Below are positions 10-27,769 of a stretch of 64,000 nt of DNA, piece after piece; the first letter of the stretch is position 1; each line of letters begins with the position of its first letter. Below the pieces are notes generated by a model. It had not been told where the DNA came from and ran no database searches. It saw nothing but the letters and a program-made list of their open reading frames with translations. Source of the stretch: Oscillospiraceae bacterium (lineage in GTDB: Bacteria; Bacillota; Clostridia; Oscillospirales; Oscillospiraceae); the NCBI GenBank assembly GCA_015068165.1, contig SVKZ01000003.1, forward strand, positions 936 through 64,935, in the 5' to 3' direction. Both the position numbers and the translations under genes were made by a program.

Positions 10-33
10 GAAAAACCGACAAGTCGGTTTTTC
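10..33. terminator. Palindromic hairpin (GAAAAACCGAC-AA-GTCGGTTTTTC), likely bidirectional terminator or processing stem
   Basis: Perfect 11-bp inverted repeat with A/T tracts on both sides. Confidence 0.55.
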
Positions 34-34
34 A

Positions 35-206
35 ACGAAATAAATCCTAACGGATTTGTGAAATAACGCTACGCGTTGTGAAATAGCTTACGCTGTGAAA
101 TGCCTGCGGGCGTGAGTGGATTTATTTCATTTCACTTTCTGCGTTAGCAGAAAATTTCACTTCGTCGAAGACGAAATTTCGCCGTGAGCGAAGCGAATGA
201 TTTCAC
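35..206. repeat. Structured heptamer-hairpin element, copy A (GTGAAAT-type x4 / ATTTCAC-type x4)
   Basis: ACGAAAT 35-41; GTGAAAT 58-64, 78-84, 95-101; ATTTCAC 129-135, 154-160, 200-206; ATTTCGC 176-182; most heptamers are separated by short hairpins. Confidence 0.85.
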
Positions 207-25003: not shown

Positions 25004-26023
25004 TTGAATAATAAGCGTTCCTTAAACCGTTTTATAGGTGCTTTTTGGGCGGTTATCTGTGTTCTATTGCTGCTTGGATTGGGCTTGGCGATGAATGTAT
25101 TGCTTCTTCCGGAGGAAACCTTGCCGGGAGAGACTACGCTGCCTGCAACCGAACCTACAGACCTGCCTACAGACCCTACTGTTCCGGCACTATCCATTCC
25201 GGAGATAACGCTGACAGCCCGGCATAGCTTTGTCTACATACCGGAGACTGGCCAGTTTCTGATGCTCAAGGGCGAAGAGGACGATAAGATTTATCCTGCC
25301 AGCCTTACAAAGCTCTTTTCCACCTATGTGGCTCTTTTGCATATGGACCCGGCAGAAACGGTAACCGTGGGCAATGAGGTCAATACCGTTTCGGCGGATT
25401 CTTCTATTGCAGGATTGAGACCCGGAGACCGCCTGACGGTAAAACAGCTTGTGGAAGCGATGCTTTTGCCCAGCGGCAACGATGCGGCAGTGGTACTGGC
25501 GGTGGCGATGGGCAGAAAGCTGGAAAATAATCCGCAGATGTCTTATACAGCGGCAAAAGCCCGGTTTGTGGAGGAAATGAACCGCTGGGCGAGGACTTTG
25601 GGGCTGACCGGCACTCATTTTGAAAACCCAGACGGTTATCACAATGAGAATCACTATACGACTTGTCGGGATGTGCAAAAAATCGGACAGATGGCCCTTA
25701 CCAATAAGACCATTCGTCAGGCGATGGTTACCCAAAAGGTGGTTGTGGATCTGCAATACGATTATCCCGGTGGCTGGAAAAATACCAATCTTTTGATCCA
25801 ACCCTCCTCCGAGCACTATAATCCTGCAGCTATCGGTATGAAGACCGGCTATACCCGTGCGGCAGGCTACTGCCTGATGTCTGCATTCCGTTTGGAGGGG
25901 AAGACACTTATGGTAGGCGTTTTTGGCTGCCCGGAAAGCAATGACCGCTTCACGGATGCCAATGCAGTTTATGATGCTTATAGGAAAGGCACAGCAGAAG
26001 CAGGCGGATACTTTCTACAATAA
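25004..26023 (+). CDS. D-alanyl-D-alanine carboxypeptidase (peptidase S11), N-terminally anchored
   Basis: SxxK (ASLTK), SxN (SGN) and KTG motifs; N-terminal TM segment; TTG start. Confidence 0.92.
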   Translation: MNNKRSLNRFIGAFWAVICVLLLLGLGLAMNVLLLPEETLPGETTLPATEPTDLPTDPTVPALSIPEITLTARHSFVYIPETGQFLMLKGEEDDKIYPASLTKLFSTYVALLHMDPAETVTVGNEVNTVSADSSIAGLRPGDRLTVKQLVEAMLLPSGNDAAVVLAVAMGRKLENNPQMSYTAAKARFVEEMNRWARTLGLTGTHFENPDGYHNENHYTTCRDVQKIGQMALTNKTIRQAMVTQKVVVDLQYDYPGGWKNTNLLIQPSSEHYNPAAIGMKTGYTRAAGYCLMSAFRLEGKTLMVGVFGCPESNDRFTDANAVYDAYRKGTAEAGGYFLQ

Positions 26024-26053
26024 TTGGGGATTCAAAAAAGCTTTTTGGCAATA

Positions 26054-26427
26054 AAAAACTCCGAAAGGTTTAGCATTGTGTCTAAAAGGACACAATGTAT
26101 CGATATAAATCCCTGACGGGATTTTCGATATACACCTTCGGTGTTCGATATGTGCCGTGCACTCGATATGCCCTGTGGGGCGTGAAGGGATTTATATCAT
26201 ATCGAATTTACCGTAAGGTAAATATATCGATTTTTCCGCAAGGAAAAATATCGAATTGCGAAGCAATATATCGACAAAAAATTACTACCCGAAAAAGAGC
26301 GTTTATTTCTCTTCTTCGGGTAGTTTTGTCTTATACTGTCATAAGCAGGAAATTTATGTGCCAAATTCCAATTAAATTAAAGATAACTGTCCTTGGTGCC
26401 CCTGCTCTTTAACCTTTCGGAGTTTTT
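26054..26427. repeat. 374-bp region bounded by a perfect 17-bp inverted repeat (split terminator or MITE-like ends)
   Basis: AAAAACTCCGAAAGGTT 26054-26070 / AACCTTTCGGAGTTTTT 26411-26427. Confidence 0.7.
26100..26274. repeat. Structured heptamer-hairpin element, copy B (TCGATAT x4 / ATATCGA x4)
   Basis: TCGATAT 26100, 26125, 26145, 26163; ATATCGA 26199, 26224, 26248, 26268; hairpins between heptamers. Confidence 0.85.
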
Positions 26428-26439
26428 CTTATTCAAAAA

Positions 26440-27468
26440 TTACCGCTGGATACGGCCGGAGCCGTCGCCGCCTGCCAGCTTCTCTACCTCAGCGACGGTA
26501 ACCATATTGTAGTCGCCTTCAATGGAGTGCTTCAGCGCGGAAGCGGCTACAGCAAACTCAACAGCTGCCTGGGTGTCCTTGCCGCTTAGCAGGGAGTAAA
26601 TCAGGCCGCCGCCAAAGCTGTCGCCACCGCCAACACGGTCAATGATGTGCAGGTCATACTTCTTGGAGAAGCAGTATTCGTTCTTTGCCACATTGTAGAG
26701 CATTGCGCTCCAGCCGTTGTCAAATGCGGAATGGCTCTCCCGGAGGGTGATGGCAACCATCTCAAAGCCAAACTTGTCGGCTAACTGTTTGGCAACGGAC
26801 TTGTAGCCCTCGTGGTTCAGACTGCCACCGTAAATGTCGGTAGCTTCTGCTTCAATGCCGAATACATCCTTTGCATCTTCTTCGTTGGAGATGCAAACGT
26901 CCACATATTGGCACAGCTCGGTCATAGCTTCCCGGGCTTCTGCACGGGTCCAGAGCTTGCCGCGGTAGTTTAAGTCGCAGGAGATCTTAATGCCGCGAGC
27001 CTTCGCTGCTTTACAAGCCTGCTTGCAGATTTCTACCAGCTCACCGCCCAGCGCGGGGGTAATACCGGTGAAATGGAACCACTGGGCGCCCTCGAAAATG
27101 GCATCCCAATCAAAATCGGAAGCAGATGCCTTAGCAATTGCGGAGTTTGCCCGGTCGTAAATGCAGACGGAGCCACGCTGAGAAGCGCCCTTCTCGTTAA
27201 AGTAGATGCCTACACGGTCGCCGCCGCGGACGATTTTGGAGGTATCTACACCGTAACGGCGCAGGGAGTTGACAGCGGCCTGGCCAATGGCGTGGGTGGG
27301 GAGCTTGGTAACATAAGCGGCATCCATACCGTAGTTCGCCAGAGACACGGCAACATTTGCTTCACCGCCGCCGAAGGTGAACTCTACGTGGTCGCACTGA
27401 ACAAAGCGCTCGTAGTTGTAGGGTTGCAGACGGAGCATCAGCTCGCCGAAAGTAATAATTTTAGCCAT
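26440..27468 (-). CDS. kdgK: 2-keto-3-deoxygluconate kinase (PfkB family)
   Basis: FGELMLRL, GGGEANVA, DRVGGGDSF motifs. Confidence 0.93.
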   Translation of the reverse strand: MAKIITFGELMLRLQPYNYERFVQCDHVEFTFGGGEANVAVSLANYGMDAAYVTKLPTHAIGQAAVNSLRRYGVDTSKIVRGGDRVGIYFNEKGASQRGSVCIYDRANSAIAKASASDFDWDAIFEGAQWFHFTGITPALGGELVEICKQACKAAKARGIKISCDLNYRGKLWTRAEAREAMTELCQYVDVCISNEEDAKDVFGIEAEATDIYGGSLNHEGYKSVAKQLADKFGFEMVAITLRESHSAFDNGWSAMLYNVAKNEYCFSKKYDLHIIDRVGGGDSFGGGLIYSLLSGKDTQAAVEFAVAASALKHSIEGDYNMVTVAEVEKLAGGDGSGRIQR

Positions 27469-27480
27469 AATTATTCTCCT

Positions 27481-27769
27481 TAACCGAAGCCGAGGGGAAT
27501 CGAACACCGACAGCCCCACAGCAGTTCTTGTATTTGTATTTTTCCTTATCTTCCTTGCCTTGCATCAGTAAGGCTGCGTCATCTGCGCAAAAATCCAAAG
27601 CAAAACTCCTTGCTGTGGGGTGCTGCGCAGTTTTGAGCCAGCGACTTTTCGTCAAGACAAGTAAAATCACGAAGGGAATATCCGCCCGATATTTTCGAGG
27701 GATTTTCCGCAGTATTGGCGGAAAGCTGCAGCTCAAAACCTATCGGGGTCCGACTCCCGTCGGCTTAAA
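27481..27769. repeat. ~290-bp palindromic (REP/MITE-like) element between eda and kdgK with tRNA T-arm-like inverted ends
   Basis: Imperfect IR 27487-27509 / 27743-27766; two long internal hairpins (CCCCACAGCA/TGCTGTGGGG; GTTTTGAGC/GCTCAAAAC). Confidence 0.65.

Follow-up and report, generated by a model that had tools for sequence, protein, structure and literature searches.

Introduction

The Gut-1 RNA motif (Rfam RF01706) was described as a non-coding RNA candidate that is found in human gut sequences only and whose function is not known (Weinberg et al. 2010, PMC2864571). Like the arrays considered here, it alternates a conserved 7-nt word with small hairpins, but the Rfam model corresponds to one half of an element whereas the unit reported below consists of two inverted halves, its word is GUGAAAU as opposed to the TCGATAT of the copy under study, and its description includes neither mobility nor terminator targeting nor a carrier composed of an end hairpin, a terminator and a tail. 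No description of Gut-1 as mobile DNA was found in the literature searched.

A second system with tandem heptamers is the intervening sequence (IVS) of the Coxiella 23S rRNA, which combines these with a PF05635-type ORF and a 28-bp terminal stem and is lodged in the loop of helix 45 (PMC4990558). It resembles the present cassette in occupying a conserved hairpin loop, in its tandem heptamers, in its strong self-pairing and in an association with PF05635 (PMC4990558). It differs in its location in rRNA helix 45, in carrying an ORF, in the contiguity of its heptamers and in a stem which belongs to the insert and not to the host.

Concerning mobile elements that recognise palindromes, the interior of extragenic palindromes is the specific insertion site of IS1397 and ISKpn1 (IS3 family) and of other REP-targeting insertion sequences (Tobes & Pareja 2006, PMC1525189), and IS1630 (IS30 family) of Mycoplasma fermentans, as far as the account given in a later paper extends, targets variable inverted repeats and duplicates the whole 16-26-bp repeat at both of its ends (Calcutt et al. 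1999, cited in PMC3317919). The REP-targeting elements possess their own transposase and address a single family of REP sequences, whereas the present cassette is gene-less, its targets are alike in shape and in a TT dinucleotide but not in sequence, and its junction repeat is of 2 bp and of fixed polarity. In contrast to IS1630, it splits the hairpin with one arm on each side and only 2 bp are repeated, while no rve domain is present in the host genome (G000).

Two further groups of elements are relevant to the mode of integration. Tn4451 (TnpX), Tn5397 (TndX) and the IS607 family display the 2-bp crossover dinucleotide at both junctions, a non-palindromic dinucleotide sets the polarity, and the two element ends, once joined, make up an imperfect palindrome; in Tn4451 and Tn5397 the flanking dinucleotide is GA and the recombinase is encoded by the element itself. 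The present cassette differs from these large-serine-recombinase elements and from IS607 in that no recombinase is linked to it and its targets are hairpins of any sequence. Group IIC introns target a terminator stem-loop that is recognised as such rather than by sequence. Their position beside a terminator is shared by copy A and its kin among the arrays described here, whereas copy B is located inside the loop, not behind the hairpin, and contains no reverse transcriptase gene. What appears distinctive of the present unit is the combination of a gene-less element bearing a Gut-1-like array and a spare terminator with insertion that appears confined to terminator loops and with a TT junction of fixed polarity.

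The current study concerns copy B of this heptamer element (element B) in a 64,000-nucleotide window of DNA from an Oscillospiraceae bacterium (assembly GCA_015068165.1, contig SVKZ01000003.1, positions 936 to 64,935), and follows up a sequence-only reading of that window.

The dac-kdgK junction

The dac (+ strand, ending at 26023) and kdgK (- strand, ending at 26440) genes are convergent and, as the sequence-only reading had stated, a search of their intergenic interval revealed no compact terminator belonging to either gene. The inverted repeat that had been reported there, perfect over 17 bp and accompanied by A- and T-runs, brackets the interval instead (AAAAACTCCGAAAGGTT at 26054-26070 and AACCTTTCGGAGTTTTT at 26411-26427, with 340 nt between) and is extendable to 29 nt at 83% complementarity. 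The stem proper stops at GG (26067-68) and CC (26413-14), the innermost TT/AA of the 17 bp being loop and junction bases (Table 1). A chance origin of these arms is excluded; abutting perfect inverted repeats of at least 9 bp were encountered in 1 of 300,000 random 320-390-bp 'inserts' from the host genome.

Table 1. Features of the dac-kdgK locus and of copy A, in window positions
Feature	Position	Strand	Basis
Copy A: intact terminator hairpin (10-33) followed by canonical double Gut-1 array (33-205), word GTGAAAT	10..205	+	Rfam Gut-1
dac-like gene (D-alanyl-D-alanine carboxypeptidase), upstream host gene	25004..26023	+	Pfam Peptidase_S11, E 1.2e-35; in ORF list
Left arm of the split host bidirectional terminator (A-run and CTCCGAAAGG)	26054..26068		Perfect complement of 26413-26427; same stem compact in G001 and L206
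Left junction dinucleotide TT (putative 2-bp duplication or crossover)	26069..26070		TT again at 26408-26409; same pattern in 16/16 insertions
Inserted non-coding cassette, 337 bp (element B and carrier)	26071..26407	+	Absent from two empty sites; homologous units in other terminators
Left-end hairpin CATTGTGTC-TAAAAG-GACACAATG, 9 bp; left subterminal inverted repeat made up of its 5' arm and loop	26074..26097	+	Inverted repeat; homologous hairpin opens every unit; end alignment
Gut-1-like double array	26098..26276	+	4x TCGATAT with mini-hairpins, central segment, 4x ATATCGA with mini-hairpins
Cassette's own bidirectional intrinsic terminator	26284..26331		16-bp stem, 9-nt loop, T-run on each strand
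Tail, 76 nt, with right subterminal inverted repeat (AACTGTCCTTGG...CTGCTC)	26332..26407	+	Homologous in G015, G116 and G088 units; end alignment
Right junction dinucleotide TT	26408..26409		Junction comparison
Remainder of the original loop, TAA	26410..26412		Rebuilt loop TTTAA of 5 nt, as in both empty sites
Right arm of the split host terminator (CCTTTCGGAG and T-run)	26413..26427		Complement of left arm; compact stem in G001 and L206
kdgK-like PfkB kinase, convergent host gene	26440..27519	-	Pfam PfkB, E 5.4e-39

The KdgK protein places the host among Faecousia-like Oscillospiraceae. Empty sites were identified in two relatives, namely one congener (G001, kdgK 89% identical) and one metagenome contig (L206, kdgK 90.6% identical). 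G001 contains the compact hairpin AAAAAACTCCGAAAGG-ACGAA-CCTTTCGGAGTTTTTT between dac and kdgK (given also as AATAAAAAACTCCGAAAGG-ACGAA-CCTTTCGGAGTTTTTTGATT), while L206 has the same stem with the loop CTTGA in the orientation of the window. The loop is of 5 nt in both and in the rebuilt window loop TTTAA, and the compact hairpins fold at about -22 kcal/mol, compared to -22.1 kcal/mol for the rebuilt window hairpin. Since these relatives possess the same stem as a compact hairpin at the dac-kdgK junction, the 340 bp represent an insertion into the terminator loop, and 26054-26070 and 26411-26427 each correspond to one half of the bidirectional terminator that dac and kdgK have in common.

These two relatives without element B thus retain the stem as a compact hairpin, and the flanks of other copies likewise display an association with hairpins. 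Both results agree with the proposal of the sequence-only reading that the element enters or adjoins terminator hairpins, for which there are now two relatives with the compact form, fifteen further split terminators, and a location at the foot of a hairpin for most other arrays. Its second proposal, that the 17-bp repeats are the ends of a MITE, is rejected on two counts. The arms belong to the host and change from one insertion to the next, even where two copies within a single genome are 98% identical, and the ends of the element itself are other sequences, namely imperfect subterminal repeats.

The compact terminators found behind kdgK in further relatives are unrelated to this one; the CTCCGAAAGG stem was present in 0/80 kdgK loci on genome contigs, and all 20 loci inspected had other sequence downstream of kdgK. 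The same stem (CTCCGAAAGG/CCTTTCGGAG), with other loops, terminates an unrelated gene in two metagenome contigs (L204 and L205).

The inserted cassette

The window contains twelve TCGATAT sites, eight of which are clustered at 26100-26274 as four forward followed by four reverse copies, and the central segment of the array (26186-26198) is complementary to the first word and hairpin arm. UUCG and GNRA loops occur on the + strand of the array, whose fold has a z-score of -10.4 relative to shuffled sequence; with the arms paired, the stretch 26046-26436 folds at -141.8 kcal/mol (z-score -11.6). Both of the additional inner hairpins that the sequence-only reading had listed were found, at 26074-26097 and 26284-26324, the latter being the stem of the internal terminator (ACTACCCGAAAAAGAG/CTCTTCTTCGGGTAGT), which is 86-90% identical in units of other genomes. 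A 105-aa ORF running through the cassette matched no Pfam family.

Copy B exhibits the Gut-1 architecture of a repeated 7-nt word between at least three short hairpins (4x TCGATAT) and aligns over the full Rfam model (1-77), but scores only 21.7 bits, below the 50-bit gathering cut-off, because its word differs. The Gut-1 model gave no match on the sister units themselves (seven loci). Group II intron RNA was matched neither at gathering level across the window nor at E values of up to 10 in 25950-26500. Comparison with IS200/IS605-derived elements (PATE) and REP-RAYT systems was likewise negative, as PF01797 is absent from G000 and G015, the ends are inverted and the right end lacks a hairpin.

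Homologous units in other terminators

Units were sought in the genus genomes by BLAST with the insert and with its terminator and tail, and then by a pattern search with the left-end hairpin; all genomes compared are draft MAGs. Homologous units were located in 15 other terminators, each with different arms, giving 16 insertions with the window copy included and both flanks readable. All 16 are bracketed by the halves of a different hairpin, with arms of 7-17 bp, A's before and T's after. Across Faecousia-like Oscillospiraceae, no fewer than 16 distinct terminator loops have thus been entered by the cassette family. One of these, C35a (C35:17835-18150), is a second unit in the host genome.

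The inserts measure 148-372 bp (n = 16), of which 14 are full-length at 316-372 bp; L039 is a 5'-truncated copy while L034 and L049 are internally deleted. Small size, the absence of coding capacity and the presence of several dispersed copies are MITE-like traits of the cassette. Two copies in one genome (L040 and L048, G068) are 98% identical with flanks at random level, and other same-genome copies are 91% (G077) and 87-88% (G231) identical, within an overall 81-91%, with flanks no better than random. Such identity (98-87%) between same-genome copies with unrelated flanks implies that the unit moved recently. The left-end pattern of subfamily 1 occurs in only 9 of 401 genus genomes, at one to three places each, all of them short units or remnants and none a longer or autonomous version, and the phage and plasmid collections contained no match to the unit.

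Positions orthologous to the insertions are occupied by compact terminators in relatives. The exact empty site was not found for the C35 insertion, where G001 has a compact terminator with a different stem, or for the G231:C79 insertion, where relatives carry unrelated compact terminators. In G023, the orthologous position of the C35 insertion coincides precisely with contig ends (the start of C49 and the end of C117), as would be the case if a repeat there had failed to assemble. Separately, the tail of the unit (TTTTGTCTTATACCGTAACAAGCAGG...) occurs alone in L042 (G070:C60:1541-1586), directly behind an unrelated ordinary terminator and with neither left-end hairpin nor array; it represents a remnant, or else a module in its own right.

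Junctions and ends of the units

The survey of copies for target duplications found an identical dinucleotide on both sides in 16/16 insertions, with TT in 15, AT in one and AA in none when the unit is read in the left-to-right direction of its ends (binomial p = 6e-5), the limits of the element beside T-runs being partly set by eye and a 1- or 3-bp duplication being possible at single sites. The AT/AT case is L038, whose 91%-identical sister copy has TT/TT. The aligned ends are GCCCAAGTG...CTGCTCA in subfamily 1, CGGCAC...GTTGGCC or GTCAGCA in subfamily 2, and TAGC...CTGCTC or CCCTA in B and C35a. A model with a 3-bp duplication (TTC or ATT) was also considered and fails at several sites.

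When the unit and one of the two dinucleotide copies are removed, the loops that result are plausible ones (TTTC, GTTT, TTT, TTTTG, AATA and others); the T's cannot all belong to the element, because many of the rebuilt loops would then shrink to 0-2 nt. Across the 16 insertions the rebuilt loops hold 46 T versus 12 A, whereas T and A are balanced in 601 terminator-like loops of the host genome, 36% of which contain TT. The T-rich rebuilt loops, set against this balanced control, and the fact that AA was never seen indicate that the polarity of integration is fixed relative to the T-rich loop strand.

The subterminal inverted repeats are imperfect, in register and equidistant from the two junctions, and in five of six units their score was reached by 0-20 of 2000 shuffles; that of copy B is weak, its score being reached by 323 of 2000. 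In subfamily 1 the inverted repetition does not extend to the terminal 5 nt of the element. Given that the repeats are equidistant from the junctions, a circularised unit would possess an imperfect palindrome centred on TT.

Termination and expression of the host genes

The internal terminator can fold on either strand (-19.8 kcal/mol for the + and -29.3 kcal/mol for the - strand) and would therefore be able to take over from the split terminator in the case of both genes; every unit of the family supplies a bidirectional terminator of its own. On the + strand this terminator has a conserved A/C mismatch, which becomes a G-U pair on the - strand, in the window (26284-26324) and in sister units, and the retention of the mismatch suggests selection on the antisense transcript. 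No sigma-70-like promoter was predicted inside the region. In 10 of the 16 units, a preceding ORF of more than 100 aa in the same direction ends within 45 nt, so that transcription would as a rule include the array as a 3' UTR.

At the dac-kdgK locus the left arm would be unable to close a hairpin, and transcription of dac would enter the array and stop at the terminator of the cassette, so that the Gut-1-like array would form a 3' UTR and both host genes would still be terminated. Such insertions may be tolerated precisely because the termination of both host genes would be preserved.

Proposed mode of integration

The reading we favour, and which we rate somewhat above an even chance, is that element B is a 337-bp non-autonomous mobile cassette which was integrated at a loop TT by a polar reaction with a 2-bp overlap and an enzyme acting in trans, and that dac now reads into the array and stops at the cassette terminator. 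Integration would have occurred at TT in the loop of the bidirectional dac/kdgK terminator through a strand- or polarity-specific reaction with a 2-bp overlap in T-rich loops. This could be a site-specific, serine-recombinase-like crossover that pairs TT at the joint of the element ends with TT in the middle of a palindromic target, or else a staggered cut of 2 bp to equivalent effect, and the enzyme supplied in trans would be seated on the in-register subterminal inverted repeats.

Two traits of serine recombinases were found, namely the same 2-bp dinucleotide at both junctions and fixed polarity (TT/TT in 15, AT/AT in one, AA in none). Speaking against such a crossover, the arms of the targets have no sequence in common, which is unusual for a site-specific recombinase, and the AT junction misfits a strict TT crossover. 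A profile search of the 92.5%-complete host assembly found no match to rve, Y1_Tnp or Resolvase. A serine recombinase (PF00239) is absent from G000 and G077, and present but unlinked to the unit in G015, G068 and G231, while the IS and recombinase loci of G015, G068, G077 and G231 comprise ordinary genes with ends that do not match the unit.

Among the alternatives, the best supported is an ordinary MITE, that is, a deletion derivative of a DDE insertion sequence which is moved by the IS transposase through a 2-bp staggered cut, its location in loops reflecting either tolerance or a preference for bent, cruciform-prone DNA. The unit is indeed small and non-coding, has imperfect terminal inverted repeats and a 2-bp duplication and occurs in several copies per genome, and rve-type transposases are present in four of the five genomes with units. 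However, a symmetric DDE reaction should yield AA as often as TT (0 versus 15 observed), tolerance alone is insufficient to explain why all 16 insertions with readable flanks are in terminator loops, no inverted repeat is conserved at the tips of the unit, and no IS locus among the rve and Y1 loci of the unit-bearing genomes matches the unit's ends. We consequently regard this explanation as unlikely, if still one to be reckoned with.

Fixed strand polarity and T-rich loops would equally be expected of a single-strand insertion, in which an IS200/IS605-like (HUH/Y1) or similar enzyme places the top strand 3' of TT in an extruded hairpin loop, the right TT then being part of the element with no duplication involved. 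The hairpin at the left end fits such a reaction, as does the presence of Y1 transposases in G068, G077 and G231, which hold the youngest copies, and their absence from G015 and G000, which hold older ones. Yet the right dinucleotide of L038 changes along with the left (AT/AT against TT/TT in its 91%-identical sister), the ends are inverted rather than direct hairpin repeats with no hairpin at the right end, and the Y1 loci and the unit have no ends in common. It is because of this co-variation in L038 and the inverted repeats at the ends that a crossover of the serine-recombinase type is favoured over single-strand insertion, which we consider distinctly improbable.

Possible relationship to PF05635 cassettes and rRNA intervening sequences

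PF05635 genes were found in 101 of 151 genus genomes. The best-scoring PF05635 (23S_rRNA_IVP) genes are preceded by four to five contiguous heptamers and followed by their inverse, for example AATTGAC x4 (L052, L055, L067, L075 and L081), and such cassettes are situated between operon genes (ruvC/ruvA, ruvA/ruvB and lepA/hemN) with no split hairpins. The sole PF05635 gene of the host genome (C1:6272-6562) lies behind an array of TCGATAT, the word common to B and C35a. Copy B has no PF05635 ORF between its inverted arrays, and the ends of the unit were present in 0 of 30 PF05635 loci, the array match at C1 being the only link.

These observations raise the prospect that the cassette, although it has no gene, is related to the PF05635 cassettes and the 23S rRNA intervening sequences and is moved by the same mechanism as these. 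In its favour are the shared TCGATAT word at C1, the tandem heptamers that flank PF05635 genes of the genus in inverted orientation on the far side, and the Coxiella IVS, which unites a PF05635-type ORF, tandem heptamers, a 28-bp stem and a helix 45 loop (PMC4990558). Against it, homology among the insertions extends beyond the array to the left-end hairpin, terminator and tail, the gene-bearing cassettes examined are between operon genes with no split hairpins, and none of the 30 PF05635 loci has the ends of the unit. PF05635 is not known to have a catalytic activity, and we judge this mode of mobility to be very improbable. The parallel between PF05635, heptamers and intervening sequences is a lead and not an established relationship. 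A broader and decidedly speculative extension is that Gut-1 arrays, PF05635 (Avd-like / 23S-IVS protein) cassettes and 23S intervening sequences might constitute one selfish superfamily that enters the loops of stable hairpins in a polarity-specific manner, with a pentameric PF05635 ring reading the heptamers.

Two further PF05635 loci are recorded here. The C1 gene (G000:C1:6100-6600; L051 1330-1830) has no ATG, GTG or TTG near the expected start, its frame running out of the second TCGATAT half, and may be broken or fused. In L071 (G067:C8), downstream of the PF05635 gene, the last roughly 40 PF05635 codons with a heptamer run occur three times in tandem beside a tRNA gene.

That the locus is not an insertion at all, the 17-bp arms serving instead to close and terminate a long structured RNA gene, or as terminal repeats of the element itself, is a negligible prospect, for although the whole of 26046-26436 folds with the arms paired, two relatives have the compact same-stem hairpin without the 340 bp, the arms are different at every copy, and the internal terminator would halt transcription ahead of the right arm.

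If the mobile cassette integrated at TT is the correct reading, at least part of Gut-1, an orphan 'RNA motif' since 2010, would travel as mobile DNA which targets the structure of terminator loops and replaces the function that it disrupts. A 'missing' or 'giant-loop' terminator between genes of gut Clostridia may then be a filled site, and such an insertion would add a highly structured 3' UTR to a host gene. The rule of TT on both sides and never AA offers a sharp signature of a recombination activity and, together with the parallel between PF05635 and heptamers, may provide a handle on how rRNA intervening sequences entered hairpin loops.

Copy A and other arrays of the host genome

Copy A gives two Rfam Gut-1 matches, of 70.4 bits at 33-106 (+) and 37.5 bits at 119-184 (-). 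The terminator-like palindrome that it had been said to abut was confirmed as the hairpin GAAAAACCGACAAGTCGGTTTTTC at 10-33, with the array following directly. About 15 arrays are present in the 1.39-Mb host assembly, with lineage-specific words (GTGAAAT, GTGATGT, GTGAAGT, ATGAAAT, TCGATAT and others). Seven of them (A, C11, C12, C35b, C38, C41 and C54) have AAC as their first letters and start right at the base of a tRNA gene's terminator, C52 is located behind the terminator of a protein gene, C21 and C53 are behind plain hairpins and C47 has no hairpin, while B and C35a are in split terminators. The sense strand folds better in 10 of 13 arrays, which is too weak to decide the strand of the array.

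At one position, behind the same upstream gene, a GCGATAT/TCGATAT array is found in L016 (G012:C113) and a GTGATGT array in the host genome (G000:C47:31284-31461), either through replacement of the array or through a concerted change of the word. Two of the arrays behind tRNA terminators (G000 C11:4610-5010 and C38:41290-41340) are followed by a partial second tRNA 3' end (e.g. TCAAGTCCTGTCGCCCTTACCA), which resembles the scar of an integration into a tRNA gene.
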